Positions 14,201 through 64,000 of a DNA stretch of 64,000 nucleotides are shown piece after piece. The stretch is from Psammoneis japonica (taxonomy: Eukaryota). The stretch spans positions 1 through 64,000 of the forward strand of contig QPGO01000076.1 of assembly GCA_008632985.1 (NCBI GenBank), given 5' to 3'. Both the position numbers and the translations under genes were made by a program. The notes under the pieces were generated by a model. It made no database searches and was not told the origin of the DNA. It saw only the letters and a program-made list of their open reading frames with translations. Within the stretch, counting starts at the first letter, position 1. Each line of letters starts with the position of its first letter.

Positions 14201-14429
14201 ACACATCTACAGTGTCTCACGCATCATGCATTGCTCATCGCTTCTCGAATCACTGTCATGCCATGATGACAGAGACGGATGAGGCCATGTGAAACGTGCT
14301 GCACAAGGAATCCAATCACAGAGAAGGAGGCGCAGGTGGGAAATCTCACAGACCCCATTTGTCAATCATGCCACCTCTTCTCAAAGTGTCAGACAGGTGC
14401 TTGTTTTTTGTTTTGACAACAGAGAACTT

Positions 14430-16539: not shown

Positions 16540-17140
16540 TTTGCTCAGCCACTGCCATCCAGCAATCAAACCTTTGAACATGCCAGTTTGCTGCCATGGG
16601 GAGCAAGGTGACAAGAGGCCACAATGCCACAAGATCAACCTTCCTTGCAGCGCTCATTGGCCACAGCTTCAAAGGCTTGTCTGGGGTTGCCCAGGTGCGG
16701 CCAGTGTCAGCATCCTCAGCATGCTGTTGTCAGATTCATTGGTGCCATCACAGAGTCCTTTTGCTGTGGAGCTTGGAAGTCTGCGCTGCTGGTGGGGACA
16801 AGGTGACATGGGGTCACAACCACACAAACAGGCTTGGTGCTGCTCAACCATGTGGTTGTTGCAGCATCACCTGAGATTCACCAGAGGCCACCAAAGTCCC
16901 CAGCTTGCTGTCCTCACATTGACTGGCACCATCATGGGGTCTCTTCATTCTGGAGTTGGGAGTTTGAATTGCACTTCTGGCCAAAAGGACATGACAGGGT
17001 GCACAACTGTGCCATGCCAGAACTCTTGCACTGCTCAGCCACAGCTCTCAAATTGTTGCTTGGATCCACCAGAGACTGCCAGTGCCCTCAGCCTGCCATT
17101 GTTGCTCCTGGGTTGGTTTCCTCAGGTGTTGGTGCCATCA
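16540..17140. repeat. Degenerate internally repetitive element, related to 33410-34050
   Basis: Recurrent motifs CAAGGTGACA..GG.CACAA..CCACAAGATCA.CC and TGCCAGTGCCCTCAGC.TGC..TTGT in both regions. Confidence 0.65.
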
Positions 17141-39700: not shown

Positions 39701-40045
39701 AGTGAAGTCTTTCTGACTGTAATGACGAACGATAGTGCAGCTAAGAGAAAAAGTCGGACGCTATTCACAGCGTCATTGCCGCGATCGCAGAAATTTTAGC
39801 AGAAACACATACAGAAAAAATCGCTTTTACTGTACTGTTACAGTAAAAAACCGAATTGAGTCCTTATTTTTGCCATATGTTGAATCGCCATTTTTTGCCT
39901 CACATTGCCCTAAAAACTGACCACCTAGCTTTTCATCATGTTTAAACAAGTTCTTTGATGACAGTTGGTTGTGAAAAGGGCTTGGGATTAGGTCTGGTTT
40001 CTTGCGACCTCCGAGCATTGCACGCAACACACTGCGAAGCGTCCA

Positions 40046-40577
40046 ATGCACAACTCTTTGAATGGGCTCTTAACTCTCTGTGTGCTTGGTTTGAAATGCA
40101 ACGAGCGACTGAGTTTCGCCATTTTTTGTTGTGAATGCATGCTGCCTCCACCAAAGTCTCTGGAGTCATCTCATGTCATTTTTGGGCACTTGCTGAATCC
40201 AAACCTGCTTGAACATTGCAGCGCTCTGTTGGCATGTCTGCCAGCATGTTGATGATGATTCCAACAAGCCAGAAGGTCACGAAGAAGTCCCAGTTGCAGA
40301 TTTGGGATTTGCAATGAATCTGAGTGGGCATGAGGATGTTGTTCACGGAGGTGTTCTTGCCTTGATCATTGAAGATTCCATGGGTTTTGCTTTTGAATCA
40401 GCGGGAACACACGTGGCCTTTGCAGCCAATCCAAACATCAACTGCTGCCATCAGTCCCCGCCAGTGTGTCTGCCGTGCTGCGGATGCATCACAAGGAATC
40501 CAAACGGAAGTGTGTTGTGTGCCAAAGGATCAAGCCTTTTCATTTTGCCAAAGGACCAAAGTCAAAGTGATGGATGA
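40046..40577 (+). pseudogene. Hot-dog-fold (PaaI/THEM4-like) thioesterase pseudogene
   Basis: LSGHEDVVHGGVLALIIEDSMG...AFAANPNINCC corresponds to family motif GH..VHGG..A..D..G...T.NLNINY; frameshifted. Confidence 0.7.
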
Positions 40578-43500: not shown

Positions 43501-43979
43501 ACATCATTGATCATGTGCCGCAACTGTGCAAATGTCAGTGGGATTGAGGCACAGACGGAATGGGCATGCGTCAGTGTCAGAATGTCTGGGTGAAGCTGCA
43601 ATTTTATTTGACTGTTTCAGCCAATGGGAGTGTGTGTGCCAGGAATTTAAAAAGCGACTTCTTGTGCAAAAACCCATGAGAACAGGTGTGTCTTCTCAAA
43701 AGGTCACATTGGAGAGTTGTCACTTCTTCATGATGGAGCACACATGCACCATGCCGAACATGCATGGACAAGGGACCGCACCATGCCAAAGCATGGAGAG
43801 GGATGAGGTGAGTTTGAAATCAGTGAAATGCAAGCCTGTGGCAGTTGACTGACAACCATTGAGGCTCAATGGGGACGGTGCAGGGATGAGACAGTTCACA
43901 GGACAATGCACAGGTTGAAACCGTTGTGCAACAAAGCAGCAGTTTGGCAGTGATGAGAGGGACTCTCACATCATCATTG

Positions 43980-44800
43980 ATGGAAGAACAAGATGACATG
44001 ATGAGCAAACGACAAAAGAAAAAGCGACACAACAAAAAATGAATGACTGAGACAAGATTGTCTTGGAGAACTGCTGCAAGAAGACATTGTTCAGACAGCA
44101 CAAGTTTCTGAATGACAAGGCCCTGAACGACAGCAAGGGAAGAGTGGTGGACACAGTGCTGTCCAAGCCAAATGCACCCAAAGAAAAGAGAGCGCAAATT
44201 TGGGGCATGTCGAAGGACAAGGTGTGAAGTGCGAAGGCAGACAACAAGGAAGAGGAACATTGTGAGTGGGAAAATGAAGAAAGAATTTTTCAGCAAGTGA
44301 TGGAGTGACACGAAAATGGTGGCATGAAGAACAACTGACACACGTGGTTTCATGTGTTGCGAATGGACAGAGGGTGTCTGGATCACAACAAGAAGAACCC
44401 ACAAGGAAAAGACAAGATGCTGACTCTGGCAGAAATGCAAGAGGGAAGGGACTGCATGATGGCACAGACACATTTCACCCTCCACTTCCTGCCCATCGTG
44501 GTGGGAAAGACATGTTGGCATTGGCGAGCAACAAGGCATTCGGCCTGCCAATTTTGGAAAACAATTGGGACAAATGGACATGCACGCACAGTGGGATGAA
44601 GGAGAAGTTGAAGGTGACAAAAGAAGCAAGCATGCTTCTGGCTTCCGGACCCTGAGCACAGCAGTGGGAAGGGCTGAGAAGCAAAACGGAACCATGGGTG
44701 GAACAAGAGCAGACTGCTGGATGGGTGCAAAACCAACAAATTGCTTGAGGACATCTGCAGAATCCACACGTTTTTGCACCAAAGCTGTTGTCTTCTCAAA
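43980..44800 (+). pseudogene. Degraded coding remnant, possibly transposon-associated
   Basis: Protein-like fragments KIVLENCCKKTLFRQHKFLND, LHFLPIVVGK and SNKAFGLPILENNWDKW across frames; family not identified with confidence. Confidence 0.35.
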
Positions 44801-46900
44801 ACTTGTGCAAAAATGGACTTTGCTGCCAACTGATCAGGTGCATTTCTGCAAATGTGTTGTTCTAAAATGTGCCTGATCAGTCAGCAGCAAAGTCCATTTT
44901 TTGCAGAATTAAAATTCGCTGAGGGCAGATGGACAGACATTTCAATGTTTCTCTTGGTGCTGGTCCACACAATTTCTGCTCATTTTTTCACAATGACCAC
45001 ATGGCACGAAAGATTGCCGTTGAAATTGCAGAAAGGACAACAATGGACAGACCAAGAAGAAGGGGGGGGAAGGAACAAATGACTGATCCGCAAACGGACA
45101 ACAAAAGAAAAATGAAGCTGCGTGAGAAATTGTCAATGCAACAGCATGAATTGGGCACAAGCCAGCTACATTTTTAACGAGGGACCTGCATTTTTAACCT
45201 TGAGTCCAGCGGGATGGGATTTCGTGCTCAAATGAATGACTTGCACGTCGCAGACTCTGGCACAAAAGTGCTTTTCACCAGCCGGCCCGCCAAGATGCAA
45301 CAACGACATTGAAGCTCAAATCATCAACAACTCACTTGGAGACCAGACAAATTCAATGAAGACTTCAATGGCAAAAGACAAAATTGTCATGAGCCAGTCA
45401 CAAAATCTGAAAGCAGTTGTCGACGGAGCTCAAAAATGCTGTCCAACTGTGCAGAACAACATGCAGGGGTGCGCAAGTGAAAACCCAGATGTGTGTCCAA
45501 CATCTGTCCAACACTGGGCTCAAGGTCAATGCAAAAAGTTGGTGTGAGCATCCACATTAAATGCGGCGGAACCCCAAATGCAATGAACCCAAAACCTGCA
45601 TGGAAAATGCGAGATGGCCCGCATTGTTTCATGGCCTCCCAAACAAATTGTTCTCCCCTCTGATGTCACTTGGTTTTCTGGAAATTCGCACTTTGAAGAT
45701 GGTGCTGAGTGCCTCACACTTGCCAACAACAACTCACCATTCACTTGCCACATGTGCAGAATGGAGATGTCCATGGCTTTTTTCTGTGATCCGCCCACCG
45801 GCTTCAATTTTTGTGCACTCCATTTTAGAGCCCACACATGAATGCGCACAAACATGGGCAAAGAACCCCACTTGAACCAGCTTGAGTGCTTCAGCAAAAC
45901 ACACTCAAGACAGGCTTTTTCTTGCCACTTGCATGCTCTCTTGGATGTTTTGCCATGATTTGCTGGCCCAAATTTTCACCCCTCTGTGGAGGGAAAAAAC
46001 TCTTTGTCCCACAACTTCTTCAAGTTGAAAGAGCTGTGAAAAGCCAAGCTTGTGGTTGTGGGGTCAACTTTCCAGGCTCAGGCAGGCTTCTTTCCTGGCA
46101 TTGGCAGCTGGAGTGCTGTTTGGTGTCCACCCTGGCATGCTTTGCTTGTGAGCAATTTGAGCACACAACCAGGGCAAGTTGCCAAGCCTTGTCTGCGACA
46201 ATCTGGCCATGGAGAGATTGTTGCCCCCCAGCCATGCAAAAAATCACCCCTTTTGCTCTGAAGAATGAAGGCACTGTGCAGACCACATCTTCTGATTTGT
46301 CAGTGCTGCTGTCATCAAATGAGCATTGAAAATGACAGCAAACTGGGTGTCACATGCTCGGCAGGCATGGTCATGATGTCGGGCACTCTGGTGTCATGCC
46401 TCCTTCATTCTGACCCAGGCAGTGTGGCTGCATTGCTGTGGGTGCATCATGTGGCAACAGCTCTGACAATGTGAATGAATGACAACCCTGTTGCAGCATG
46501 TAAAGAGAGTTCAGCAGTGACTTAATTGACGCGTGTTGCATTAAAATCGAGATGGAAGTGAGCGTCTCACACAAGGTGCTGGCAGCGCAGCGCAGTGGCT
46601 AATTGGTGTAGGACATGTGCCTAAATATGATTGATCATAGGCACAACTATCACTCAGTTCGGGCACATCATTTTTTTGGGGGTTGATTTTTCATTCTTCG
46701 CAGCGACCACTGACACCTTTAATCCAACAAACGTTCCAAACACAAACTAGTCTAATCTTAAAGGTGTACCGGTACTGGAAGTTCATAGAAAACGACACTG
46801 TTCCTCATTTTGAAGGAAAATGATACCTTACAAGCAAACTTCCCCAGAGAAAGGAGCAGACAATTTTGATGCCTCGTTGCTTGCATGAGCTTCTTTTTCT

Positions 46901-49900
46901 TCAGCTTTCGCTTCGACTTTCGCTCCCGCTTCCACTTTCACTCCCGCTTCTTCTCCTCCTCCTCCTCCTCCTCCTCCTTAGCCCCTTTGTGCCACCTGGA
47001 GTGGAACTCGGCACGCTCGATGGAGTTGAACTTGGTAAAGTGCTGGGTTGACTCGATGGATGATCAGATGGCGACAAAGAAGGAGCACTGCTTGGAGCAT
47101 TAGATGGTGCATCACTTGGAACGAAACTAGGCATACTTGATGGCAAACTACTAGGTTGACTCGAGGGCACCACACTTGGTGAAGCGCTTGGCGTACTCGA
47201 GGGCATGTCTGACGGCGACAATGACGGAGAAACACTTGGAGAAACAGTCGGTGCAGTGGGAGCACTCGATGGTTCATGCGACGGTGACAAAGATGGAAAG
47301 TTACTCGGTGAACCGACGGCTCATCGCTTGGAGTCAAACTAGGCTGGCTTGATGGCATTGAACTCGGTTGGATTGACGGTAATTCGCTGGGGGGAGCACT
47401 TGGCGAACAGGATATTGTAGACAGTCGATAAACATAAACGCGCCCAGGATGCCCACCTCTGTTGAAAGAAGCACCCATCGCCACCGTCCTGGAATCAGCT
47501 GACAACGAAACGGAAACTCCAGCTGAATCACGGAACGCTTTTCCATCAATGTCATTGCCCAACTGCATCCAAGTCGTCCCAGTGAATTGATAGACACGGA
47601 CATGCCCGCCTTCATCATGGTAAGGAGCGCCAAGCGCCACCGTCATTCCGTCTGCTGACAACGAAATGGATCGTCCCAAATTATCACCTTCCACTTCTTC
47701 ATTTATGTCATCACCCAACTTGGTCCAAATTACTCCATCGTAGTGGTAAACACGAGCAAGCCCAAAAGTCTCAAAAAAGCCATTATAGTTGGGGTCAGGG
47801 TTTGGCCAAACGATAGCCCCAATCGCCACCGTCCTGGCATCCTCCGACAAGGACACGGAAAATCCCAATCGTTCACCTGCAGCTTCTCCATCAATGTCGT
47901 TCCCTATCTTGGTCCAACGCGTTCCATCGTAACCGTAAACACGAACATGCCCGGCTTGAAAACCATTGCCACCATTTTGATAAGCTCCAATTGCCACCGC
48001 CATTCCATCCCCTGACAATGAAACGGAATATCCTGAAAGATCACCTGCCGCTTCACCATTGATGTCATCACCCAACTGCGTCCAAGTCCTCGTTCCATTT
48101 ACATTGTATTTATAGACACGAACATGCCCGGCGTAAGTATAATTACGCCCGTTGTACTCGGTGTAAGTACCAATACCATCGCCATTATTGCCGTATGCAC
48201 CAATCGCTACCGTCATTCCATCGTTGGACAATGAAACGGATCCCCCAGAGCTGTCAATTTCCGCTTCTCCATCGATGTCATCACCCAACTTGGTCCAAGC
48301 CTTCGCACCATTTACATTCTTGTATTGATAGACACGAACATGTCCTGCACTACCACCATTGTCATCATTACCTGGAGCACCAATCGCTACCGTCATTCCA
48401 TCTGCTGACAATGACACTGACCACCCAGATTGGTCGTATCGTTCTTCCCCATCAATGTCATCGCCCAGCTGCACCCAAGATGTTCCGCTGTGTCGATAAA
48501 CACGAACATGTCCTATGCTATACAAAATACCATTGCCAGCATTAAATGGCGCGCCAATCGCCACGGTCCTTCCATCAGCTGATATTGAAACCGAATCTCC
48601 AAAAAAATCATTTGCTGCTTCTCCGTCAATGTCTTGGCCTAGCTGCATCCAACTAACACAATCACCAAGAGGCATGAGCGATGGCGCTTCGCTTGGAAAA
48701 TCAGTGGGAGCACTCGAAATCGATGGCTGATAGGACGGCAACAAAGACGGAGCAACGCTTGGAGAAATGGAAGGTATGCTCGACGGTGATCCACTCGGTT
48801 GGCTTGACGGAGTTGCACTTGGTGAAGCACTAGGAGATTGGGATATTGTAGACAATTGATAAACACGAACATGACCTGAATCACGGCCATTCACACCATC
48901 ATTGCGAATTGCGCCTATCGCCACCGTCCGGGCATCGTGTGACATTGAAACCGACCTTCCAGAAAAATCCTCAAACGCTTCGCCATCAATGTCTTGTCCT
49001 ATCTGGTTCCAAGTCGTTCCAGTGAATTGATACACACGAACATGGCCCTTCTTGATACCATCATCATCTTTATTGGCACTAGCACCGATCGCCACCGTCA
49101 TGCCATCATCCGACAAGGATACTGACCATCCAGAACCATCATTTTCCCCTTCTCCATCAACATCTTGGCCCAACTGGGTCCAAGTCGTTCCAGTGAATTG
49201 ATACACACGAACATGGCCCTTCGTGATACCATCATCATCTTTATTGGACACTGCACCAATCGCTATCGTCATACCGTCACCTGACAAATGCACCGATTTT
49301 CCGGACTTATCATTCGCGGCTTCTCCAACAATGTCTTGACCTATCAGAGTCCAAGTCATCATTCCATTTACATTGTATTGGTAAACACGAACAAGACCTG
49401 CACGTTGATATAGAACACCATCAGAACCAATCGCCACCATCATTCCGTCGTTAGACAAGGACACTGAATTACCAGAAAGATCACCATTCCCTTCCCCATC
49501 AATATCCTGGCCTAACTGGATCCAATGCTCTCCAATGAATTGATAAACACGAACATGCCCCGCGTTGATATAAGCACCATCATTCATTGGAGCACCAATT
49601 GCTACGGTTCGGCCATCATTTGACAATGCTACTGACGCTCCAGACCAATCGTTTCCCAGCTCTCCATCAATATCCCGACCCAACTGGATCCAAGACATTC
49701 CAATAAGTTGATAAACACGAACATGTCCGGCATTAAAAATATTGTGACTGTCGTTCCCACGCGCACCAATCGCCACAGTCATTCCGTCCCCCGATAAGGA
49801 CACTGAACATCCAGAATAATCGTCAGCTGCTTCTCCATCAATATCCTGACCCAACTGGATCCAAGCCATTCCAATGAGTTGATAAACACGAACATGTCCA

Positions 49901-50428
49901 GCTCGGTTACCAACCCCATCATTTTCGTTAGCTCCAATCGCAACAGTCATTCCGTCATCTGACATAGAAACGGAATATCCAAATTGATCACCTCTCGCTT
50001 CTCCGTCGATATCCTGGCCCAACTGCGTCAAAACCAGCCAATCTGCAATGGAAAGTTCTCTCTGGTGTTGAGATGAAAGCGACTGACGTAGACTTGTCCG
50101 ATTCGATAAATTATTCCTATCGGTAGGGAAGTATCGTTCGTTTGATAGATCATGATGCGTCTTGAGACGAGAAATGAATGAAGCAAGCATGTAAACTGTG
50201 AGCTTCAGGATTTTGTCTTTGTGAGTACTGCACAAAAGGAAAAGACAAAGTCGGTACGAAATCGGACAATCTTTCGACTTTCGATGATGAATGGCGTAAT
50301 GTTCTTACCTCGTTGCCGCTCACGCTTTTCTTCGTGTCGAAACTGTGATACGCCTTGATCATGGTCATTTCTTTTGCGAGCATGGCAGTTGCCAAAAGGG
50401 TCTTCAGGACTACCGTTGGGAACTTCAT
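46901..50428 (-). CDS. Secreted or surface adhesin-like protein: two 7-repeat FG-GAP-like beta-propellers with Pro/Ser (PSxxPS) mucin-like linkers
   Basis: 14 repeats of W.QLG.DIDGE..D.SG.SVSLS.DG.TVAIGA..N....GHVRVY (7+7). Signal-like MKFPTVVLKTLLATAMLA and 5' intron from 50308. Frameshift near 47305, so the C-terminus is uncertain. Confidence 0.85.
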
Positions 50429-51774
50429 GGCTCTTGACACTAGGTGGCTTCTTGGAGGAAGGTTTGCTTGTGCTTGTCCTTTTCTTCTCGAGGAGGAAAC
50501 ACAACGCAGCGAGGAAAATTCACATCATTAGTACGAACAAAATGAATGATACAGAAGGTAAAATCACTCACCTCGTAACAGCAAGCTGGATTTGTGAAAA
50601 CGAGAGAATTGTGAAGCTCAAAATGAAATAACAACAAACGCAAGCGCGAACCGCGATACCCGCGAACAGCAAACCGCGAACCTGAAGCGAACGGCAAAAT
50701 GATTTGTTTCACACAACAACCTTCAAGCAAAAGCCGCTTGTGCCGGCACATAATTGCTGAATGCTTTGCATGTGAAGCCAGCTGCAAAGGATTTGTTGGC
50801 ACAGCGCCTCAAAACGGCACTGCAACACAGGGAGATGATTGCCGGCATGCATGCGATGGAATGAGGTGAACACAATTACGAAAGAGCTGTCGTGCTCCTC
50901 CTCCGGCCGGCGGAGCATTGATTTTTTATCCTTTGTTCATTTTCACAAATGAATGAGTGCAATGCACGCATGTCCAACAACAATGAGCAAATCCAAAATG
51001 TCACTGAAATGTCCTTCGAAGAAAGACACTCAGAAGAGTTTGTGCCGCTGCCTGCACATCATGCAGTGCAGTGTCAGCCTTCTCATCACTGGCACACAAC
51101 AAAAAAAGCAGACGCGTTTGAACAATGCACCATGGCACAATGTGCTGGCAATGTATGATGGTGTGTCTGAGAATCACCAGCCATGCTTTCCCCTTCGTCT
51201 CACGACAACACCTCTTGCACAGCCGCCTGGCCTCACTCTCCCGCTGCACCCACTCTTGCCCCGCTCGCTGGGGTGCGAGAGACTTTGGTGGTGGGTGGGT
51301 TGGGTTGGGGTTGGGGTCAGCCCACCCAGCACTTTTTTCCCAGTCTTCTCTGCTTTGCTGTCATGCTTTTTGCATCTCTTTTCAACTTTCCTGCTGGGCT
51401 GTGTGGCGGCATCTGTGGCATCCTCTTCTTGGCACTTTGTTCTTTCATGAGACTTTGCCACACCCCAAGAAAGTGTGGTTGCCACGAGTGAGAATGTCTC
51501 ACTTTTTTGTGGTGAAAACTCTTCTCCTGGCCCCTTTGACTGATTTGATGTTTCTTTTGCACCTCTCTGGGTTCAAATGACTCGCCCATTGCTGCTTTCT
51601 GAGCAAGTGTCTCCACTCTGTTGATGGTGTGACAACAACGCTGCTGCTTTGAGTTTGTGGCTCATTCTGAGCTTGTGTTTTCTTGGGGTTGACAAGGGTT
51701 GCCAGGAAAATGCAAACCCGGAAATCCGGGCAGAAATTGGGGAAAACACAAACCCGGAAATCCGCAAAAACCCA

Positions 51775-51960
51775 GACAAATTGATGACAGACATGGACAT
51801 GTCCGGAAGAACCACCACTGCCATCATTGCAAGGAGCACCAAGCACCACCGTCATTCCATCTGCTGACAAAGAAATGGATTGTCCCAAATTGTCACCTTC
51901 CACTTCTTGGAATCAGCTGACAATGAAACAGATTTTCCAGCTGAGTCACGGAGCGCTTTT
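51775..51960 (-). pseudogene. Hypermutated, rearranged 3' fragments of a propeller-gene paralogue
   Basis: EGDNLGQSISLSADGMTVVLGAPCND matches 47580-47700; 51909-51960 matches 47490-47543. Confidence 0.8.
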
Positions 51961-52099
51961 GTTTGTGCAAATGACATTTAGACAAATGACTGTGATCTCT
52001 TCTGCTCTTGACTCTGCAGTCCACATGTCACTTGGGGTGGAGTTGGTGGCAAAGCGGCAGCAAAAGGAGGTGATTCCCTGTCCACCAATTCTTCAGCAT

Positions 52100-54564
52100 G
52101 CTCCACTGAGAAGTGCGCGTGCTGCCAATTTTCTGCAGCTTCCCTGCAGAAGTGAACAAACTGTGTGTTTGTTGAATGGCTCAATGCCAAAGACACCACA
52201 AGTTGTTGAACAAACATCCAAGACAATGACCAACATCAGTCTTGCATGCTTTTTCCATGGTGTTGTTGTTGTCCCTTTCACACAGCTGAGGTCGTGTGAA
52301 CTCAAACTCAGCACTCGCGCATCCACAAAAAACAGCGTGCTTCTGTGCTTGGCGAAACAATGCATTGTCAGGGTCCAGGGCCAACATCAGCAATTGATGG
52401 ACAGAGAATGTGTGCTGTTTGCAGACACTGGTCTCTCCCTGCACTTTCAGAGCTGCTTTGCAGACACGACAACCATCATCATCTTCAACTGAAAAAGGGA
52501 GAATCAGTCTTGTTCCCCAATGTCCAGCCATGTCAACAAAGTCACCACTGCGCAAGTCAATCTTAGAGATCATCATTCAACAATTGAAAATCAGTGTCCA
52601 TCAGCAATGCAGTTCAACAATGAAAAAAGAATTTGCAAATTGGTGCGCACCGTGTGCCTGGGTTCTGTCTCGATCGGATCAAACCGTTTGTTTGGCTTCA
52701 GTTTTCTCATCATTCCAATGCAGACAAATTGCAAAAGCCAATGTGGGGTGCAACACCACAGAGCCACTCTGCCATTTTCTCTTTTGACATGCCGTGCCGA
52801 TCCTTCCACAAGTCGCAAGAACACTTGCATTCCAACCAAAACAATGACTGCTTTCAAGACTGTCTTGCACGTTGCTGCATTGCACTCAACTTTCCCAACC
52901 ACATCTTCTGAATCAAGGACAGACCAAAGAAACTCTTGTCCTTCTTTGTTCCAGGCGTTGTCCATGCTCATGTCTGTTTTGCAGTCTGGGTTCAACTCCT
53001 GTGTTGTTTCTTCGACAGTTGACTCAGCAATGGGCCGCACCTCTTCATGCAGCTCTTTCCATTTTGCAACTTTCAACAACACAGGCAACACTTGCTCCAA
53101 CTTGTTCAAAAACGGACGGGTTGGCTCTTGATTGCAGACAAACATTTGCGATTCCTTGACAATCTTGATTGCCCGGCTGCACGCAATTGTGATTGGGAGA
53201 ATTTTCTCTGAATCAATTGGTGGCAGAGGAACCAAACTTCCATCTTGGAGGGGCTCTTGTGATGGATCGGGATGTTGCACCAACTCCCGTAGAACCACAA
53301 TGTCTTCTTTCAACAAAACCTCTGGTCTCTCAGATTTCTCTAAAGCCACAGCCTTGCTTTTCTCATCGTGGTCCTCAACAATTGCACAAGCCTTTTCTTT
53401 GTCAAACTCATTTGGGTCATTGACAAAGAGCAATTGCTTGTTGGTGCAACTCTTTTCAAATGCATTGCGCTCATCATCATTTGTCTCTCTTGCTGCCAGA
53501 ATCATGAAATCAAGTTCCAGCCTGGCCATTTCTGCAGTCATCATGCTCTGACCATCCTTGAACACTCTTTTTCCATTTTCATCACAGGTCCCCATTTGAC
53601 AGAAATGTTCCTTTCCATTCTTTCTTAGATGGACATTTTGAAAGGGAATGAAGAGTGCTCGAAACTTCTTGTCTCCCACTTCACCGCAAGGAAAAAGCAA
53701 ATGGGAGACTTGCAAATGGTGCCCATCTGCAGATGGTCAAGATCCCTCTTCAACGATTTTACTTTGATGCAAATGTTCACCACTTCTTTCGTCTTGTGAT
53801 TGATGCAAGTGTTGTTTCCTTTTTGACTTGCATTCTCAGTGCATCCAAGTTCAACTGCAATGTTCTTCAACATTTTCTTGGCACAGGAGAATCCATCAGA
53901 ACCAAGCTTGTCAATCAAGTCCACATCAAGACTTCCATCCTCCTTGATGCAACCTTTTTGGCAAGAACGACTGGCTCATTTTTTGATCCAGTGGGTGCTC
54001 CATTGTTTTCGGAAGACACCTCATTCCAATGGCGGGTCTTCACTCTTTCCCTCAACTTCTTGCCCACTGCACATTTTAGAGAAGTCAGGTAAAATCAAAA
54101 AATGATCAGTTCACAAAAAATGTTCAAACAGCAAATTCATCGCGGGACAGACATTCATCATGCTGCAGACACTTGCACACGTTGTCCGCCTCAATCCTGT
54201 TGAGATCATTGACAAAAGCTCTTTGCAAAATTCTTGCTTCACCAATTCTCTCCCCATTGGCAGCAAAGAATGTGTCGCAATGATTGACCTTTTGTTTCAA
54301 ACAACCAAACTCTTTGGCAATCTCATTGAGCAGAGACACTCTTTCGTCTCTGCTTCTATGAAGTGAGCCAATCAACTCCATGTCAACAGAGTTGTCCTCC
54401 TTGACACTGCACTGTTTCGCGACCAGCACAATCTCTTTGTGTGAGCCAGTTTGTCCATTTGCAACATTTTTCACCACAGAGGCAGAAGCAGTGGTGGCAG
54501 CTGCAACAGGAGGAGCAGCGGCGGTTGTGGCTGCTTTCTCGATCCTGTGTGAGCAGTTTTCCAC
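52100..54564 (-). pseudogene. Degraded long gene (Tyr-free) with possible C-terminal HNH-endonuclease-like motif
   Basis: ORFs 54124-54564, 53625-53924, 52591-53715 (374 aa, no Tyr) and 52181-52576; FSVHQLLMLAL...DVGHCLG.LFNNLW resembles VHRLVA.AF...VDH..G...NN. Confidence 0.4.
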
Positions 54565-55622
54565 ACAAAGTTTTTGACGGTCTTAAGAGGTTTTCTCTGC
54601 CTTTTGTGACTGGACGGCTTTTTGTTGGGTGAGTGCTCCAAAGCCTCGGAAGCCTCTGAAGAAGATGAGGAATCCATTGTCTTTTGGCTTGAGCAGGCTG
54701 CAAATGCCGGTGTTGTTCATGAACAATGAGAGCAGCAACAGGCGAGTCATCCGATCTTTGCCAATTACCACTTGCCTGGTGCTGAGTGAGTTGCCAGTGT
54801 GTGCGGACCACGTCATGCAATTTCCACTTGCTGGGTGCCACCGCAAGCGAGAGAGCAGATCATCCAAAGCTGGTGTGAACAGCATGACTGAGCGAGACAG
54901 CCAGAAAACATTGAGAACCGACTGTGAGCGAAAGCAATGTCTCCATGGAGGATGAGGCCATCACAAACGAGCATCCCGAGGCTGCTTTGGTTGAATTTTT
55001 GTTTGCTGAATCAATGAATGTAGTTCGTTGTGCATCGAACTATCTTCTCAGGAAAGAACTGAAGATTGTTGATGAAATCTTTGGGATTGTCTAGAAAACA
55101 AGGAGCCAGTCATTTCTGCAATGACATCATTTCGTGACGGCATGATTGAGCATGATGGTGTGGACAAGGCCACCCACACGCTGATCCAAACAATTGATGT
55201 TGCTCTACAGAATCGTTTGCATTTCGCTGTTTGGCAAAAACAAGAAATCAAGGAATTGTTCTTCCAGAAAAAACTGCTTGAGAGCAAAGCCCACGATGTC
55301 TTCACGCAGGCAATGTTTGAATTGGAGACTGTCCTCGACATCATTTCCAGCTGGAATGCGGAAAGTGCCTTCTTGATGCACAAGGAGTGCACAGCTGAAT
55401 TGGAGGCATCCAAGAAATGGTTTGTTGAGAATCGGCGCTGCAAGGAATTTCAGGCTGTCCGCATCTGTGACAAATCACACTGCTGTGAAGAAATCCATTG
55501 CAGCAGCATGGACGATGAATCGTTTTTGACAGACCAAGTGGGCGACAAGCTTTGTGAATGAGAGGAAGAGCTAGTTGCATCAGTTGCATCTGTGAATGTA
55601 GAGGACACCTGCGGCACGTCTG

Positions 55623-55857
55623 TGCGACAACTCTCGTCTGAGAGCTGGGAGATGTTGATGGAAGGTGAGCAGCAATCGCACTGCCAGCAGCAGGGCTGAC
55701 AATGGCGATGGAATCGACAAAGCTGCCAATGTCTTGTTGCACTGGGTGTTGCAATTGTGAGCAGAAAAAGGGGAGAAGTTCTCCAAAAGAAGGGCGGGAA
55801 ATCGCGTGCGTGAGTGAAGAGCGCACGAATCGCGCATGAGTTCGCACTGTGTTGACA
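55623..55857 (-). repeat. 3' LTR
   Basis: Direct repeat of 61696-61930, preceded (minus strand) by the PPT. Confidence 0.95.
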
Positions 55858-55866
55858 CTCCCTCTC
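55858..55866 (-). promoter_or_regulatory. Polypurine tract
   Basis: GAGAGGGAG immediately before the 3' LTR. Confidence 0.85.
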
Positions 55867-55877
55867 GAACAAAGAAG

Positions 55878-58800
55878 CTGCCAACCACAAAGCAACTTGC
55901 AAATAGACTCAAATTTGACCGTGACGAGTCCTTTTGTTAAAATGTCAGCGCATTGCAGGTCTGTTGCGATCTTAGATGCAGCAATTCGGTTTGGTTTCAG
56001 CTGTGAACAAAACCAGCGACACTTGATTGCGCAGTGCTTGGACCTTGGCGTAACTTGGCCAGGTTCCATGTTAGCCAGAGTCAAGGCTCCAGCATTGTCC
56101 TCCCACACGGTGGTCCTGATGGTCTTGGTGGTCCCCAGACCAACTCCAATGCCTTGGGAGATGGCTTGCACAGTGCGAAGAAAGGGAAGGACAGTTTTCA
56201 TGCATGTGGAGAGAGAGCGCTGCACTCTGCCTCCATGGTTGAGAGTGCGATCTCGGGTGCAAGCTTGCCAGACCAGACAACAGGACAGTTTGAAATGCAA
56301 GCAACAAATCCTGTTCGGCTCTTGACACAAGCCGGGTCTTGCATGTCTTCATGCGGCCACAATCCAGCAAAATCTGAGTCAACAAAAACATCAATGTTGA
56401 AGTCCCCAGATGGCTTGAGGATCAAACCTTCCTCCAGTGCACCCTTGAGGCATCGGCCAATCCTCTCGAGGGCTTGTTCATGCAAGCAGTGCAGACTGTG
56501 AACAAATCTTGTGGCAGAGCTAAGTGCATGGGTGATGTCAGGCCTTGAATGGCCCTGGAGATGCTGGAGCATGCCAACAACACTGGCGCAATTGAAAGCT
56601 CCATTTGGTGGGTTTCCATCGGTGTCCTTGACCAAATGGGCAGCCAGTGCCCCCATGTTTGGGCCTTTGGCAGATGGCCCACATTGAGGGCTTCGACGAC
56701 ACGCTTGGCTGGGCCGCTCTGGGTGAGCTTGACAGTGCCATTGTCGGTGTTGCAATGGATGTGGACGCCCAAAAAACCTGCGACGGAATCCTCGACTTTG
56801 ATGGCCAGACCGCCATCAATTTTGAGTTTTTCAATCACTTCGTTGATGCACTCTTGCTTCAGTGAAAAGAACAATGTGTCGTCAACATGCACAAGGCAGA
56901 TGACCTCATCGGACACGAAAAGGCACGGATCAACATCATCTTGAGATTGAAATCCGACGTCTTCAAGTTTTGATTTGAGGTGCAGGAAAAAGTTGCGTGG
57001 TCCTTGCTTGAGACCATGCATGGTCTTCTTCAGTTGCAGCACTTTGTGTGGGGCTTTGTGTGACCGCGAGGCATTTGCATGAACACGCCAGAGCGTTCCC
57101 GTTCTTCAGGCATCATGGTGTCCCATTTGGGATCTTCATCAATCGGAGCATGCACGAAAGCCATGACATGATCAACTTGCTTCATGGAGAACTCAAGAAT
57201 TTGAGAAAGCATGAGCATCAGCCACGCTGTTGTCCAATTGACAACTGGAGCAAAGGTGTCAAAACAATCAACACCTTCCAATTGCTTGTCACCGCAGACA
57301 CAGAATTGGGCTTTGTGTTTCTGGATTGACCCATCAGGGTGCCGTTTGCATTTGAAGGCCCAAGTGGATGGCAGAACATTCATCCAATCTTGGCGGTCAA
57401 CCTCCTCCCAAGCATCTTTGCCGTTGACAAGGGAGTCAATTTCGACATCACAAGCCTTGAGATGGGCTGCACGATCGGGCTCACTCACAGCTTCTTCCCA
57501 AGCAGGGTTGTCGGCAGAATTTGCATTAGCTGCAAGAGCCAGAGGATGCATTTCTTCGAGTGTGCCGTGAACTTGATCGGTGTTTTTGTTGAAAAGGTTG
57601 ATCACAGCACGCAAGTCTTTTGATTGGAGTGCGTTTGTAACACTGTCCCACTTCTTTGGGGCCATCAGAAACTGCTTGTTGAGTGTCTCTGATTTGGCCA
57701 TTCGTTTGGGATTCTTGCAGGCTGCTGGCAACTCGTTTGGAGGAGTGCGAGTGTCAGCCATCATGGCTTCAACAAGGCGGTCCGGTTTCTTGATGGTGCG
57801 GCGCTGCGAGTCCAAGTGGCAGCAGCAGGAGCATTCGGCGCCGCTTCAGTGGGCTCAGCGATGTCTGAGCCAAGATCCAGGTCTTCAGGCAAGTCGTGAT
57901 GGTCAACTAGGGACAAATCGTTGTTGCTGTTGTCGCTGGACTCATCGATTTCGACTCCCTCTGGAGCCTCTGAAGTTGCAGATGCCAGATCATCGATGAT
58001 TCAGGATCAGCAGGAAGCGCTCCCTCTGGAGCTGTGATGGAAGAGGTTGGTTGAGGTTTAGTTTTGCCAGGAGAGGCGCGCTGTTGGCGGCGCAACTTCC
58101 ACGCCTGACGATGGGTCTCATGGTGGCGGCGCTCTTTGGGCATCAGCCAATCGTCATGCAGTGCGGGCAAGTGATGGCGAGGGTCCTCAGAAGGCTCGTG
58201 GTCAAGAGCGTGGTTGACCATGGAGTCAGCAGCAAGCAGGGACTCCCAAACGTCAGCGGAGAAAGGGATGTCCTGAAAGTGCCCCCCAGAGTCACTGTTG
58301 GGCACGGTGGAGAAGTGGTTGTTGTAGACCACATGGTGTTGAGGGCCAACACAGCCTGTCACAAGGTTGAGGATCAGGTCAATGTTCATGGAATGAGCCG
58401 GGGAGATGCCAAGGTGTTGGCCGCGATGGCTGCGCAGGTCCCACTTCGAAACTTTCTTGCCATCCTGCAGTTTGGGATCTAAAACATGCACAGGACAGCC
58501 CCACACTTGCAAGCACTGTAAATGCATGCAGGAATCAAAGCATTGCTTGGAATGGATCTCGACAGGAGCAGTGCGAGTGTCAACTTTCAGAAGATGATTC
58601 CACAAATGAGCGGCGTGAGTCATGGCAAAAGGCCAAAGTTCCAGATTGGCGGCATCAGGCCACATGAGGACGGCATGGAGCAACGCAGATCTTGCCCATG
58701 AGGTGGTGGTTTGAATGGAGCACTCAGCAATGCCGTTTTGATGATGGGCGCCAACACCAGAGAAGTCTGTTGTCTGGTGGTTCTCTTTGAGATCTTGCAT

Positions 58801-59300
58801 GAAGGCCTCAGAGCCAAAAGGGATGTTGTCAGCAAGGTGTTGCTTGACCTGGACCCCAAATTGGTCACCAAGCTGCTCAAAGGCACGCTCAGCACATGTG
58901 GTTTCACCTGCAGTGAGACCAACTTGATGGGTCAGGAACATGCAGCTAGAGGCGTGATCGACACTGGTTGATGGAAGACGGCCAGGGACGCGGCTGATGT
59001 GCTGGTCAACAGAGACGCATTGACCTGGAGACAAATCGCCCCCTCTCACAACACCATGGGCAGAGGTTTCGATGTGCTGCGGCGGTCCGGAGTGCGCCGC
59101 TTTTGTTTGGCCAGTTGACAGGCGGCACATGATGGAGGTGCACAACCTGCCACCATGTCAGATTTGGGTTTAAGGACTTGGGATTTGGTGGGATCCCTTG
59201 GGACAGCACTGAGATGTTGGATGTGTTGGAAGCCAGCGTGACCAAGTTTTTGATGAAGCAGCAGAAGCTCCTTTTGACCTGGACGTTGGATGAAGGAAGG
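55878..59300 (-). pseudogene. pol: Copia pol (integrase, reverse transcriptase, RNase H), frameshifted; protease not recognisable
   Basis: LHQKLGH...CAACQLAK; VDHAS; ADN..F; GAHHQNGIAE; WGCPVHVLDP.LQDG; WAFKCK; DTFAPVV.W; LKK.MHGLKQ.PRNF; CLVHVDD; VDSDFAG; ALSTMEAE; EDN.GA; ADILTKGL; LLCGW. Confidence 0.95.
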
Positions 59301-59709
59301 AACAAGTGGGGTCTCTTCGTGGGAATCGAACTGGATGACGGTCCAAACGACGAACTTGCACGTGATGACATGATTTGTGGTGCATCCGATGATGAAGAGG
59401 ATGATGATGTGGGCTGTGTTCCAAGGACAAGGTGACAACAAACCAAGGCATGTCATCGCATGAGAGCGAAGGATTCTTGGAAAAGAGCAGCAAGCAGAAA
59501 AACAACCCACCTGCTGAAACAAAAAGGAACTGCAAAATGGCAGAGACGGCTGCTTCTCCTCCCTCTGCAAGAATCTGGAGAGCAAACCACAAGAGGAGGG
59601 ACTGCACCGCAGTCATGCAAGCCTGGATGTCCCTTCCAGAAAAGGTTGTTTTGCTGAAAAGCGAAAAAGGGTGGGCTGCATGCTCAAAGAAGGAGGCGTG
59701 CCCGAAGCT

Positions 59710-61230
59710 TCAGGTGAAGGAAGCAAAGAGACCAGTGATGGTCTCGGCGACCTCGCGCTTGGCATTTGCAACAGCCACTTTGCGGTCCGGATGCAGAGCG
59801 GAAGCAGGGGCCGGGGCAGGAGCAGGTGCAGGAAGTGCTGGGGGCACAGTGGCAGCACCAGCAACTTGAGCAACAGGGCACAAGCGCTTGGTCTTGTGTC
59901 GACAGCAGTGATCTTCACCATCAATGTTGCGGCGACTGTCATTGTTCTTCTCGGCGTCAGTTGAGGGTTGCCATTTCTTGGGAATGGTCTTGGTTGGCTT
60001 GCCATCCTTCCTGGAAGAGGCATCGTTTTTGTTCTGAGCCCGTTTCACGTCAAAAAACAGTTTCTTGTTTGCACGCACTCGTGCATCGTCGACGGGCTGC
60101 TTGCAGTCGGAAAGAGGATGAGGGCCACCACAATTGAAGCAGTTGACTCCTCCAGCAACAAATGCGGTTGCATTCTTCTCAGCAGTCACGCTGGACCACT
60201 GGTCAGAAGATGCAAGGGCCGGGTGTTGAGCCTCCACGAATTCAAGGAGATCAGGCACGGATGTGGTGCTGATGGTCGGACCACTGGACTCAAGCTTGGA
60301 GATTTGAGAGTCCTTGGTGAGGTGGTCAAAAAGGGAATTAAATTCCGGGATGCTGGAGGTCTGGAACACCTTGGTGAGGTTTTCCATGAAATCAGAAGGA
60401 ATGACAGACTTGCCTTTCTGATCCTGGAGGTTCTGGAGTCGAGTGCATCCACCACGGATGAGTGAGACAACTTTGCCAACGTCTTCACCATCAAAATTGG
60501 TGATCTTGAGCAAGATCATGTTGGCGACCAAATGACGAGCAGCCTCCTTGGAGTTGCTCTGCAGGAATTTCATCACAAGCAAGAAAAAGAGAGGTCCGCC
60601 TTGTTCTTCTTGCGGATGCTTGAGGCATGTCTCGTTGACTTTCTCCTGGAGGGCACAAGAGGCGTTCCTCTCAAAACAGTCACAGGCAAGACGAAGGTTT
60701 TGGCTGGCTGAGGTCCCATCAGGGTCCTCGAGTGTCGTAGAGTGCCACTTGTTGCTCTTCACGACTTCGGCTTCGGTGATCGTCAAATGCTCGGTGCAAA
60801 GATCACGAGTCTTGAAGGTGACAGGATCGACAATTTGGAAAACATCGTCCACATCGCACTTGACGTGGTTCGACCGCATGGTCGAGATGGACATGGCCAG
60901 ATCACAAGTGTCTTCAAGTTTGTCCGGATCATTGATGTTGAAATTTAAGAGGTCAAAACGCGTCTGCAGTTTCGCAGCAGCTTGCTGGAATGAGTCATTG
61001 AGCTTGTCCGGGTCCAACTTGTTCCTCTGCTGTTTAGTGCAGAGAGCAGCAAGAGCATCCATGGACGTTTTAGGGGTCACGCGGACTTTGACTTTCCTGC
61101 TGTTTATCTCCACCTCAGCAGTCGTGGTGCTGGCAGGCGGAGTCGGCGGAGTCGGCGGACATGGAGGCGGAGTCGGCGGACTTGAAGGCGGAAGAGGTGG
61201 ACTCGCTGATGGGCTGGTCATGCGAGTCAC
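59710..61230 (-). pseudogene. gag: Copia gag-like ORF with zinc knuckle
   Basis: EQGGPLFF, FQTSS.PEFN..F, CFNCGGPHPLSDC; 506 aa without a single Tyr. Confidence 0.85.
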
Positions 61231-61681
61231 TCAAGGAAATGCAGGTTCTTTGGATGACGGTCAGCAGTTTGACCGTTGTCCATCCGGAAGTGAGCCCATT
61301 GTCAAGTTGTGCGGGTGACAGTGGCCTGACGGTCTCGAATTGTTGCTGTGCGACGAAAGTTTCAAACTTCGTTCGTCATCACAATGCGGTCGCCGACACA
61401 AAAATCTGCGACGGTCAGTTCTCTGTCAATGACAGGCCAAGATGGTCCGGCTCCAGCTCTGTCACGGTTCTGTCATTCGCGTTCAGATGCAATGCGATGA
61501 ACTGAGTCGGCTTCTTGCAGTTGAAGCTCTTGTGGTTGTTCAATGAGGTCGTCCAGTGTCTCAGAACTGCAATTGGACATCAACGTTCTGCACACAGAAT
61601 TGCACGTAAAAATGTACAGAGCTCAATTCTCGTCCACCGGAGAGAAAAGAGATGAGGCGCAGGAGTCGTCAAGCATGATGC

Positions 61682-61695
61682 TTGGGCTCCTGACC
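61682..61695 (-). promoter_or_regulatory. Primer-binding site (degenerate copia-type, half-tRNAiMet)
   Basis: GGTCAGGAGCCCAA directly after the 5' LTR resembles copia GGTTATGGGCCCA. Confidence 0.6.
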
Positions 61696-61930
61696 TGTGA
61701 CAACTTCGTCTGAGAGTCAGGAGATGTCGACGGAAGGTTGAGCAGTGATCGCATTGCCAGCAGTGGGGCTGACAATGGCAACAGAATCGACAGGGCTGCC
61801 AATGTCTTGTCACACTGGGTGTTGTAATTGTGAGCAGAAAAAGGGGAGAAGTTCTCCAAAAGAAGGGCGGGAAACCGCACGCGCAAGTGAAGAGCGTGCG
61901 AGTCGCGCATGAGTTCGCACTGTGTTGACA
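61696..61930 (-). repeat. 5' LTR
   Basis: Direct repeat of 55623-55857. Confidence 0.95.
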
Positions 61931-62059
61931 GTCTGGACTGGACACAGAATTGATTCCGCAATCCCCTCTGGAGAGCAGGAAGAAGAAAAAGAGTTCAAAG
62001 CAGAACTTCAAAAATGCAGGTGGGAAACATTGAAACTGCAGCATGTGATGATGTGTTTC

Positions 62060-64000
62060 AAATCAATGTCTTGACCCAACTTGCTCCAAGCTGTGCCAAT
62101 GAGTTGACAAACACAAACATGTCCGGCATTGACAATGTTGTGGCTGTCGTTCCCACGCACACCAATCACCACACAGTCATTCCGTCCCCCGATGAGGATG
62201 CTGAACATCCAGAACAATTGTCAGCTGCTTCTCATCAACATCCTGACCCAACTGGATCCAAGTCATTCCAACAAGTTGATGAACATGAACATGTCCAGCT
62301 CAGTTGCCAACCCCATCATTTTCGTTGGCTCCAATTGCAACAGTCATTCCGTCAGCTGAAATGGAAATGGAACATCCAAATTGATCACCTCTCGCTTCTC
62401 CATCGATGTCCTGGCGCCCATCTGCGTCCAGACCAGCCAATCTGCAATGGAAAGTTCTCTCTGGTGTTGAGATGAAAGCCACTGACACAGACTTGTCCAA
62501 TTTGACAAACTGTTCCCATCGGCAGGGAAGCATCGTTTGTTTGACAGATCATGATGCGTCTTGAGACGAAAAATGAATGAAGAAAGCATGCAAACTGTGA
62601 GCTTCAGGATTTTGTCATTGTGAGCACTGCACAAAAGGAAAAGACAAAGTTGGTGCAAAATCGGACAATCTTTCAACTTTCGATGATGAATGGTGCAATG
62701 TTCTTCCCTCTTTGCCACTCAAGCTTTTCTTCATGTCGAAACTGTGATGCGCCTTGATCATGGTCATTTCTTTTGCGAGCATGGCAGTTGCCAAAAGGGT
62801 CTTCAGGACTGCTGTTGGGAACTTCATGGCTCTTGACCCCAGGTGGCTTCTTGGAGGAAGGTTTGCTTGTGCTTGTCCTTTTCTTCTTGAGGAGGAAACA
62901 CAATGCAGTGAGAAAAATTCACATCATTGGTGCGAACAAAATGAATGACACAGAAGGTAAAATCACTCACCTCGCAACAGCATGCTGGATCTGTGAAAAC
63001 AAGAGAATTCTGAAGCTCAAAATGAAACAACAACAAATGCAAGCACCAACCGTGACACCTGCGAACAGCAAACTGTGAACCTGAAGCAAACGGCAAAATG
63101 ATTTGTTTCACACAACAACCTTCGAGCAAAAGCCGCTTGTGCTGGCACACAATTGCTGAATGCTTTGCATGTGCAAGCCAGCTGCAAAGGATTTGTTGGC
63201 ACAGCACCTCAAAATGGCACTGCAACACAGGGAGATGATTGCCGGCACCGGCATGCATGCAATGGAATGAGGTGAGCACAATTGCGGGAGAGCTGTCGTG
63301 CTCCTTGTCTGGCGGAGCATTGATTTTTTATCCTTTGTTCATTTCACAAATGAGTGAGTGCGGTGCATGCATGTCCAACAACAATGAGCAAATCCAAAAT
63401 GTCACTGAAATGTCCTTCGAAGAAAGACACTCAGAAGAGTTTGTGCCACTGCCTGCACATGCAGGCAGTGCAGTGTCAGCCTTCTCATCGCCGGCACAAC
63501 AAAAAAGCAGACGCGATTTGAACAATGCACCATGGCACAATGTGCTGGCAATGCATGATGGTGTGTCTGAGAATCACCAGCCATGCTTTCCCCCTTGTCT
63601 CACAATGACACCTTTTGCACAGCCACCTGGCCTCACTCTCCCGCTGCACCCACTCTTGCCCCACTCGCTGGGGTGCGAGAGACTTTGGTGGTGGGTGGGT
63701 TGGGGTTGGGGTCAGGGTCAGCCCACCCAGCACTTTTTTCCCAGTCTTCTCTGCTTTGCGGTCATGCTTTTTGCATCTCTTTTCAACTTTCCTGCTGAGC
63801 TGTGTGATGGCAACTGTGGCATCCTCTTCTTGGCACTTTGTTCTTTCATGAGACTTTGCCACACCCCAAGAAAGTGTGGTTGCCACGAGTGAGAATGTCT
63901 CACTTTTTTGTGATGAAAACTCTTCTCCTGGACCCTTTGACTGATTTGATGTTTCTTTTGCACCTCTCTGGGTTCAAATGACTCACCCATTGCTGCTCTC
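62060..64000 (-). pseudogene. Hypermutated duplicate of the 5' part and upstream region of the propeller gene (49670-51600)
   Basis: Collinear alignment; GYSVS->GCSIS, GHVRVYQ->GHVCVCQ, KAYHS->KAHHS; small indels. Confidence 0.92.

Follow-up and report, generated by a model that had tools for sequence, protein, structure and literature searches.

To our knowledge, no TpA-specific hypermutation of DNA was known in eukaryotes until a preprint of 2026 described it in a single chlorarachniophyte, Bigelowiella natans. Of the 231 de novo mutations reported from two integrated viral regions of its mutation-accumulation lines, 230 were A>G/T>C changes, all of them at TpA (Mettrop et al., bioRxiv 10.64898/2026.01.13.699255, April 2026). 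According to the main text of the preprint, the targets are integrated DNA of nucleocytoplasmic large DNA viruses (NCLDV) and of virophages, one of the regions hit is single-copy and transcriptionally silent, a class of coding sequences rich in reverse transcriptase has a TpA frequency of ~0.0018, and the authors propose an ADAT2-like DNA adenine deaminase (bioRxiv 10.64898/2026.01.13.699255). Here we describe a 64-kb stretch of DNA from Psammoneis japonica (contig QPGO01000076.1 of assembly GCA_008632985.1, positions 1 to 64,000; hereafter the window), in which a duplicated fragment of an expressed FG-GAP propeller gene has lost nearly all its TA dinucleotides while the gene itself retains them. 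All positions are those of the whole window, and the copies were compared within it.

Two other groups of mutators are natural points of reference. Fungal repeat-induced point mutation (RIP) changes CpA to TpA, depends on pairing and mutates both duplicates, and enzymes of the ADAR and APOBEC kinds act on RNA or single-stranded cDNA, before integration, leaving strand-coordinated clusters. A third process, the decay of methylated CpG (5-methylcytosine, 5mC), is relevant as well: transposable elements (TEs) of diatoms are described as CpG-methylated through DNMT5 (PMC9998398). In the literature that we searched, we found no report of TpA-type hypermutation or of TA-free repeats in diatoms; the main text of that preprint has zero mentions of CpG or diatoms, and Maumus 2009 (PMC2806351) makes no mention of hypermutation, dinucleotides or deamination. 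The B. natans preprint was the only account of this kind of mutation that we found, with nothing for diatoms.

Results

One copy of a duplicated gene fragment has lost its TA dinucleotides

Alignment of the window with itself (blastn) showed that 62062-64000 (copy B) matches 49666-51599 (copy A) at 91.6% identity over 1948 columns, in agreement with a preliminary description of this DNA that had placed a duplicate of 49670-51600 at 62060-64000. Copy A comprises the first two blades, both introns, two small exons and ~760 bp of upstream DNA of an intact gene (gene A); copy B holds the same segment, runs to the end of the window and lies in a block, 51001-64000, in which TA is nearly absent. The alignment contains 140 substitutions and 23 gap columns. 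Reading from copy A to copy B, the 40 TA became CA (20), TG (17) or TC (1), with 2 kept, and the 86 CG stayed CG in 36 cases and became TG (25), CA (21) or another dinucleotide (4). Change of TA (37) or CG (46) to CA/TG in copy B accounts for 83 of the 140 substitutions, the remaining 57 being of other kinds; in the reverse direction, copy B gained no TA and 4 CG. The loss of TA (92%) was fuller than that of CG (53%), as the preliminary description had concluded from a 50-base example whose counts are exact (6 TA and 4 CG in 50101-50150, 0 TA and 2 CG in 62500-62549), and exceeds the per-site background divergence of the two copies at least ~80-fold. Copy B is left with 2 TA in 1939 bases; its CG number 43 when counted directly and 41 when only the ungapped columns of the alignment are considered. 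The TA-bearing state is the ancestral one, since copy A keeps the family consensus VRVY (14 blades in gene A) and since, in a converted Copia integrase described below, a number of conserved Tyr and Arg columns read His or Cys.

Copy B had been taken for a converted propeller paralogue. Converted it is, but it is a truncated pseudogene fragment without a 3' part: its homology begins mid-blade at 62062, it holds only the 5' portion of the gene (upstream DNA, two small exons, both introns and two blades), an in-frame TGA and two or more frameshifts interrupt it, and its three minus-strand frames contain zero Tyr codons, VRVY reading VHVH or VCVC. Because both introns and the upstream DNA are kept, copy B arose by duplication of DNA and not via RNA. 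Its left flank is unrelated to that of copy A, and a contig of a public sequencing run (X1) bridges its left junction (61903-62461, 2 differences), which contradicts the assembly artefact that the preliminary description had entertained.

The two copies have different histories along their length. Right of ~50.9 kb both are TA-free and 96% identical, and right of 50900 only 2 sites are discordant between CA and TG, against ~12-15 expected if 23-31 TA had been converted independently; this right-hand part was therefore already converted at the time of duplication, and the left 1.2 kb of copy B was converted later. The distance from the breakpoint within gene A to the start of copy B is 12,396 bases, and a tandem duplication of 49666-62061, which would yield an intact gene followed by a 3'-truncated copy, is its likely origin judging from this arrangement.

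The expressed gene keeps normal TA at neutral sites

Gene A (46734-50836, minus strand) encodes an FG-GAP_2 propeller (Pfam PF14312, E 7.3e-53, 177 bits, cut-off 23) with 14 GHVRVY-type blades carrying VRVY motifs, the Tyr-rich repeats that the intact copy had been said to retain, joined by Ser/Pro linkers. Contigs of a second public run (X2), which span 46734-50836, omit 148 and 88 bases with CT..AC ends, that is, two GT..AG introns of the minus strand at 50161-50308 and 50484-50571; these separate the large exon (up to 50160), an exon at 50309-50483 with the ATG at 50428 and a signal-peptide-like start (MKFPTVVLKTLLATAML), and the first exon (50572 to at least 50836). As its contigs skip both introns, X2, whose record is silent on type, acts as cDNA and gene A is expressed; the predicted product looks secreted. 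Among 8000 scored candidates, 5025 proteins reached E ≤ 0.001 against the gene A protein, with best identities of 54-61%, and the proteins found are all distant FG-GAP proteins, mostly bacterial or metagenomic. The likeness to FG-GAP_2 propellers consists in this domain match, which names the affected gene and nothing else, and we know of no link between the family and a mutation process.

Neutral sites of copy A were not depleted. For TA, the two introns have observed/expected ratios (o/e) of 0.38 and 0.62 and the coding sequence has 0.54-0.57, compared with 0.59 in untouched window DNA; TA in gene A is distributed 37/28/42 over the codon phases, with no depletion of synonymous TA, and CG o/e is 0.9-1.25. 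With normal TA in introns, untranslated region (UTR) and synonymous sites, the sparing of copy A is not accounted for by protein-level selection alone, and such selection falls short as the alternative that the preliminary description had offered, preservation of one copy by selection; nor are synonymous and intronic TA of the intact copy depleted like those of its twin, as a hit on both copies would have left them.

Gene A is an unconverted island with converted blocks on both sides, and TA is normal from 46501 to ~50660, a stretch that nearly coincides with the one covered by transcript contigs. On the 3' side of the gene, the block at 40001-46500 has its last TA at 45826 and ends sharply, normal TA density resuming at 46501. 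On the 5' side, normal DNA passes gradually into converted DNA at 50660-50930 (TA at 50657, 50751, 50877, 50927 and 51154), so that the twin described as spared is spared as far as gene A is concerned but not right of ~50.9 kb, where it is itself TA-free (3 TA in 50837-51599). Within 50769-50802, X1 and X2 contigs hold TA at six sites (five in X2) at which the window has CA/TG. At 50630 and 50658 it is the window that holds TA (dinucleotides at 50629 and 50657), and a different X1 contig reads TG. The conversion front thus sits in the 5' UTR/promoter of gene A and varies between alleles or strains.

At the other end of the gene, both public runs add a G after 47314 (61.3/61.3 and 41.3/41.3 depth), relative to which the window has a 1-base deletion, probably an assembly error or a strain difference. 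The missing G shifts the frame of the Ser/Pro-rich tail of gene A; with it, the protein would run on in the frame of the open reading frame (ORF) 46901-47320, with SPS repeats and then poly-Arg.

A second host gene and a Copia element are converted

The window contains another duplicated gene with one converted copy. An ADP-ribosyltransferase-domain (ART) gene in normal DNA (31125-32760; Pfam ART/ADPrib_exo_Tox, E about 3e-12) is 88.8% identical to a copy at 12557-14208, inside the block at 9401-18200, which matches Pfam ART at E 1.6e-4 only. In the latter, 46 of 57 TA and 27 of 104 CG became CA/TG, and one TA was gained; here too, only the partner inside a block was converted. The earlier claim that host genes and not just TEs are affected holds for the ART copy as well as for the propeller fragment, and a third case of converted host coding sequence is a lone FG-GAP blade on the minus strand at 51499-51912, just upstream of gene A (VRVY to VHVC; Pfam FG-GAP_2 E 7.7e-5, 23.2 bits, cut-off 23), a remnant of an older propeller copy. 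The normal ART copy ends less than ~100 bases from the next converted block (32.8 kb). The converted one keeps an open frame of 295 codons, because TAA and TAG are impossible in TA-free DNA.

Next to copy B, at 55623-61930 on the minus strand, lies a converted Ty1/Copia retrotransposon. All features of such an element are present (RVT_2, SH3_retrovirus, an ORF for a CCHC gag, long terminal repeats (LTRs) with TG..CA ends and a target-site duplication), with domain scores lowered by conversion. The LTRs (minus strand, 55623-55857 and 61696-61930, 235 bp) are 87% identical and the 5-bp target-site duplication GTCTG (55618-55622 and 61931-61935) is intact. By the usual mechanism, the LTRs of one element are identical at integration; these two are discordant between CA and TG at 8 sites and contain 0 and 1 TA, so that conversion followed integration and the ancestral TA/CG were resolved independently. 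The integrase ORF has a single Tyr in 416 amino acids, where 117 of the 120 listed homologues have at least 1% Tyr; of these 120, none is Tyr-free and 3 lie below 1%, and they revealed no second organism with the footprint. Its nearest matches are only 35-58% identical, and it reads His in 3 of 4 columns with a conserved Tyr and Cys or His in 4 of 11 with a conserved Arg. Insertion of the Copia element was considered as the cause of the truncation of copy B and was rejected, given the intact target-site duplication and the 126 bases between the element and the edge of copy B.

Contigs of X1 (depth 43.7) and X2 (518 bases, 142 + 375) join the gene A intron at 50274 to the Copia 5' UTR at 61409, skipping 11,134 bases, with 4-base microhomology and ends that are not intron-like. 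The joint may represent a deletion haplotype that places an LTR upstream of the propeller large exon, and perhaps an LTR-driven chimeric transcript.

Strand and sequence context of conversion

Along the sequence, CA and TG outcomes follow one another at random (runs tests, z = -0.46 for 37 sites and -1.63 for 46 sites). This absence of strand coordination points to single-site events on both strands, unlike processive editing of one strand, and led us to reject strand-processive editing. Context mattered: among the 97 ancestral TA of the two gene pairs, those within TTTA/TAAA were kept in 8 cases and converted in 7, against 1 kept and 76 converted among the others (Fisher p = 5.8e-7). TA inside TTTA/TAAA thus resists conversion, a rule that is new here. 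Among 90 TA surviving in the blocks, TTAA is enriched 3.9-fold and ATAT and GTAT/ATAC are absent. The ratio of TA to CG loss rates, computed from the pair counts, is ~3 and ~5.5 in the two gene pairs, and surviving CG show mild protection by GC context.

Converted DNA forms discrete blocks

Dinucleotide counts divide the window (~47-49% G+C) into two sharply distinct states. In normal DNA (32.9 kb), o/e is 0.59 for TA (1348 TA), 0.96 for CG and 1.18 for each of CA and TG; in converted blocks (31.0 kb) it is 0.05 for TA (96 TA), 0.39 for CG, 1.71 for CA and 1.66 for TG. The blocks lie at ~9.4-18.2, 32.8-35.6, 40.0-46.5 and 51.0-64.0 kb; per kb, the last, which contains copy B and the Copia element, has o/e values of 0.01-0.13 for TA, 0.34-0.86 for CG and 1.4-1.8 for CA/TG. 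The difference in TA between the two states goes far beyond chance; TA density is bimodal and most block edges are less than 100 bases wide. The CA plus TG surplus in the blocks (~1950) is close to the combined shortfall of TA and CG (~2085). CG o/e spans 0.08 to 0.9 among TA-free blocks; at 13001-14000, for example, it is 0.90 with a TA o/e of 0.05.

Pfam searches with 39 further ORFs from converted blocks found zero domains apart from the one FG-GAP blade, and the content of 9.4-18.2 (except the ART copy), 32.8-35.6, 40.0-46.4 and 51.9-55.6 kb is without a recognisable domain; it may derive from old transposons, from viral insertions or from dead host genes. TAA and TAG cannot occur in TA-free DNA, which leaves TGA as the sole stop, and either strand can then show spurious ORFs of considerable length. 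In four converted blocks (9401-18200, 32801-35600, 40001-46400 and 51001-55600; ~22.6 kb), or no more than 300 bases from them, 53 ORFs have 130 codons or more, and 59713-61230, 52594-53736 and 16424-17530 are examples of long ones. The products of these spurious ORFs are without tyrosine. Within converted DNA, 11507-12158 and 14382-15122 share weak internal similarity (71%).

Compared with X1 contigs over 51787-60916, the window differs mostly by transitions (of 26 differences listed, 12 are CG vs CA/TG and 4 are TA vs CA/TG), and a 3470-base X1 contig over gene A (46500-46915 and 46987-49037) has 0 other letters and one gap. Sequence change appears to be quicker in the converted blocks than in the gene beside them. 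X1 contig depth is ~57-68 at 51.5-55.7 kb, ~61 over gene A and 180-650 over the Copia element, values that resemble those of single-copy and repeated DNA, respectively; depth is not copy number and was not used as such. Coverage by X2 was not seen over 62268-64000 or over the greater part of the converted block; silence of copy B does not follow from this, and we did not draw that conclusion. A DUF4336 gene near the locus has its best named relatives, at 60-68% identity, in the raphid pennate diatoms Seminavis, Cylindrotheca, Nitzschia and Pseudo-nitzschia, and protein atlas data likewise indicate Bacillariophyta, in keeping with a source among the diatoms or their near relatives. The assembly has one N in the window, at 2699.

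Discussion

The explanation that best accounts for the locus as a whole, to which we give a probability of about two in three, is that a duplicate fragment of an expressed propeller gene was converted in place by a domain-targeted TpA process acting together with CpG decay. Duplication at the DNA level copied the 5' part of gene A, with its right-hand 700 bases already TA-free and the rest normal, and the remainder of copy B was rewritten in place after it had come to lie in a block that is rich in repeats and presumably silenced and methylated at CpG. The sequence itself shows that the segment was duplicated and converted in place, in which direction and with what spectrum, that neutral sites of copy A escaped and that the TTTA/TAAA rule holds, whereas silencing or methylation as the signal, the deaminase and the tandem origin are inferred. 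Two processes would be at work: a fast one, A to G at TpA on either strand (TA to TG or CA), site by site, with TA near T-tracts spared, for which a DNA-acting adenine deaminase of the TadA/ADAT2 kind is the candidate enzyme; and a slow one, the ordinary decay of methylated CpG to TG/CA, which would mark the same silenced domains. CpG decay is probably separate from TA loss and shares its target domain; we read it as a second process because CG loss is uneven among TA-free blocks, surviving CG show mild GC-context protection and diatom TEs are CpG-methylated. Targeting would follow the domain or its transcription state and not homology, leaving the transcribed island of gene A untouched even at neutral sites, with a front that would halt in its 5' UTR/promoter and differ between alleles. 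That context rather than pairing decides had already been suggested in the preliminary description, and the boundary in the 5' flank of copy A, the ART pair, the LTRs and the single-copy precedent in B. natans all support it; chromatin state as the targeting factor is suggested by TE content and CpG decay.

Several points weigh against this explanation. Repeat-rich content is seen in only part of the converted blocks, most of which are without a recognisable TE domain, and the silenced state of the domain is deduced from TE content together with the decay of CpG. The very sharp block edges would also suit editing prior to insertion. CpG decay accompanies TA loss here and is not reported, in the text covered, for B. 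natans, so that the systems may not be alike, or a single enzyme may cause both losses. The window stops at 64000, which limits the support for a tandem duplication and for the extent of copy B, and our view of copy number and deaminase gene content is that of the 64-kb window. Runs X1 and X2 are possibly the same data as the source of the assembly, in which case they are not independent of it.

Compared with B. natans, the locus shares the TA component of the spectrum (A>G/T>C at TpA only), the confinement to discrete regions with the rest normal, and independence from homology, which both gene pairs in the window display. TA density in the blocks is ~0.003 overall (96 TA in 31.0 kb) and ~0.0005-0.002 in the cleanest stretches, as against ~0.0018 there. 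The host, however, is diatom-like (a stramenopile) and not a chlorarachniophyte, and loss is near-saturated (TA o/e 0.05), whereas Rho is 0.45 for the NCLDV region of B. natans. The targets here include a Copia element and host gene fragments, and the lack of accompanying C>T seen in B. natans does not extend to this locus, where CG became TG/CA at 46 of 86 and 27 of 104 sites, possibly by a separate process. The resistant TTTA/TAAA context and the boundary at an active gene are observed here, and the process is known here from sequence and not from de novo rates. New from this locus are the one-sided conversion of a duplicated, intron-bearing host gene fragment, the near-saturated TA loss, its coupling with CpG decay and the allele-variable boundary at a live promoter. 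Decay of 5mC is a partial likeness: read from the spectrum alone, CG became TG/CA in repeat blocks, partially, to an extent that varies between blocks and more weakly in GC-rich contexts, but it does not account for the TA loss, which outpaces it and goes further.

Among rival explanations, a homology-dependent, RIP-like process that hit both copies, with selection or gene conversion restoring or preserving the functional one, would have had a suitable substrate in a ~2-kb segment that was near-identical when duplicated, and diatoms have DNMT4 enzymes related to fungal RID, with function unknown according to the source (PMC9998398). The locus resembles RIP in that transition hypermutation with a dinucleotide footprint inactivates duplicated and mobile DNA. 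Yet only the copy in the block was hit, the introns, UTR and synonymous sites of copy A have normal TA and CG, TA is destroyed and not made (TA to CA/TG is the reverse of CpA to TpA), the ART pair was likewise hit in one partner only, and a single-copy region was hit in B. natans, all of which makes this process very improbable here. Editing in transit, of RNA, cDNA or extrachromosomal DNA before integration by an ADAR/APOBEC-like enzyme, with copy B carried by a mobile element, finds its best argument in the very sharp block edges; the best-defined block content is a retrotransposon, the changes are deaminase-type transitions aimed at selfish DNA or RNA, and ADAR-type enzymes favour U before the edited A (as stated in bioRxiv 10.64898/2026.01.13.699255). 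What we observe is nevertheless chromosomal DNA converted post-integration at sites random in strand, and it includes an intron-bearing gene fragment: the introns and upstream DNA that copy B retains show that it did not come from an mRNA, the two LTRs of the Copia element carry 8 CA/TG discordances, the target-site duplication shows that the Copia element was inserted into DNA contiguous with the flank of copy B and did not carry it, and TA sites at the boundary differ between alleles. We therefore regard editing in transit as quite improbable, if a little less so than the RIP-like process. The least probable alternative is an artefact, either a false duplication (a haplotype collapsed into tandem) or base-calling errors at modified bases. 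The assembly has at least one indel (the G missing at 47314 relative to both runs) and alternative joints exist, such as 50274>61409, but X1 contigs match the converted block at ~99% (e.g., 1498 bases with 9 differences), one of them bridges the 61903-62461 junction, the left flank of copy B is unrelated to that of copy A, and frameshifts and the 57 ordinary substitutions among 140 separate the copies.

Two further rivals concern the chemistry. Sequence alone does not reveal whether A>G took place on a given strand or T>C on its complement, and the primary lesion might be on thymine, the T of TpA being oxidised or modified and mispairing with G to give T>C; modified thymines are mutagenic and some protists modify T. 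The window offers no evidence of such modification, and the preference for TpA agrees with the U33-A34 context, an invariant one, of tRNA adenosine deaminases, which counts against a thymine lesion; we judge it improbable, though less so than editing in transit. Slightly better placed, but still unlikely, is one bifunctional activity (e.g., an ADAT2-like deaminase whose substrates in DNA are both A and C) that turns both CG and TA into CA/TG. Both losses are confined to the same blocks and give the same products, their rate ratio is similar in the two gene pairs (~3 and ~5.5), and ADAT2 enzymes that deaminate A and C in DNA are cited in the B. natans preprint (bioRxiv 10.64898/2026.01.13.699255). 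A single activity is hard to reconcile, however, with a CG o/e of 0.08 to 0.9 among TA-free blocks (0.90 at 13001-14000, with TA at 0.05), with the merely mild GC-context effect among CG survivors, typical of spontaneous 5mC decay, and with hypermutation in B. natans that, in the text covered, has no C>T component.

In-place conversion by a domain-targeted TpA process, together with CpG decay, would have consequences beyond this gene. The locus is a natural controlled experiment, in which the same 2 kb, with introns and promoter, stands once inside and once outside a converted block; the location of a sequence, irrespective of whether it is repeated or foreign, appears to determine whether it is converted. 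The known range of the phenomenon now includes a diatom-like genome, diatoms being an ecologically major group with genetic tools, and the TTTA/TAAA resistance is a rule that any candidate enzyme must reproduce. An allele-variable front in the 5' UTR of a live gene is a route by which repeat-adjacent genes could erode. For annotation, TA-free blocks mean inflated ORFs and weakened homology searches, and pipelines and gene callers will over-predict and miscall in them; predicted proteins without tyrosine could, in turn, mark the TpA-loss process database-wide. More tentatively, and as a conjecture that we hold with well under even confidence, diatoms, like B. natans, may possess a DNA adenine deaminase, guided by chromatin, that removes TpA wherever DNA is silenced and untranscribed, be it transposon, virus or orphaned gene fragment, its front halting at active promoters and creeping allele by allele. 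If this is true, it would be an ancient genome defence common to the stramenopile, alveolate and rhizarian (SAR) groups, one that kills genes by position and not by repetition and leaves tyrosine-free pseudoproteins as a searchable footprint.

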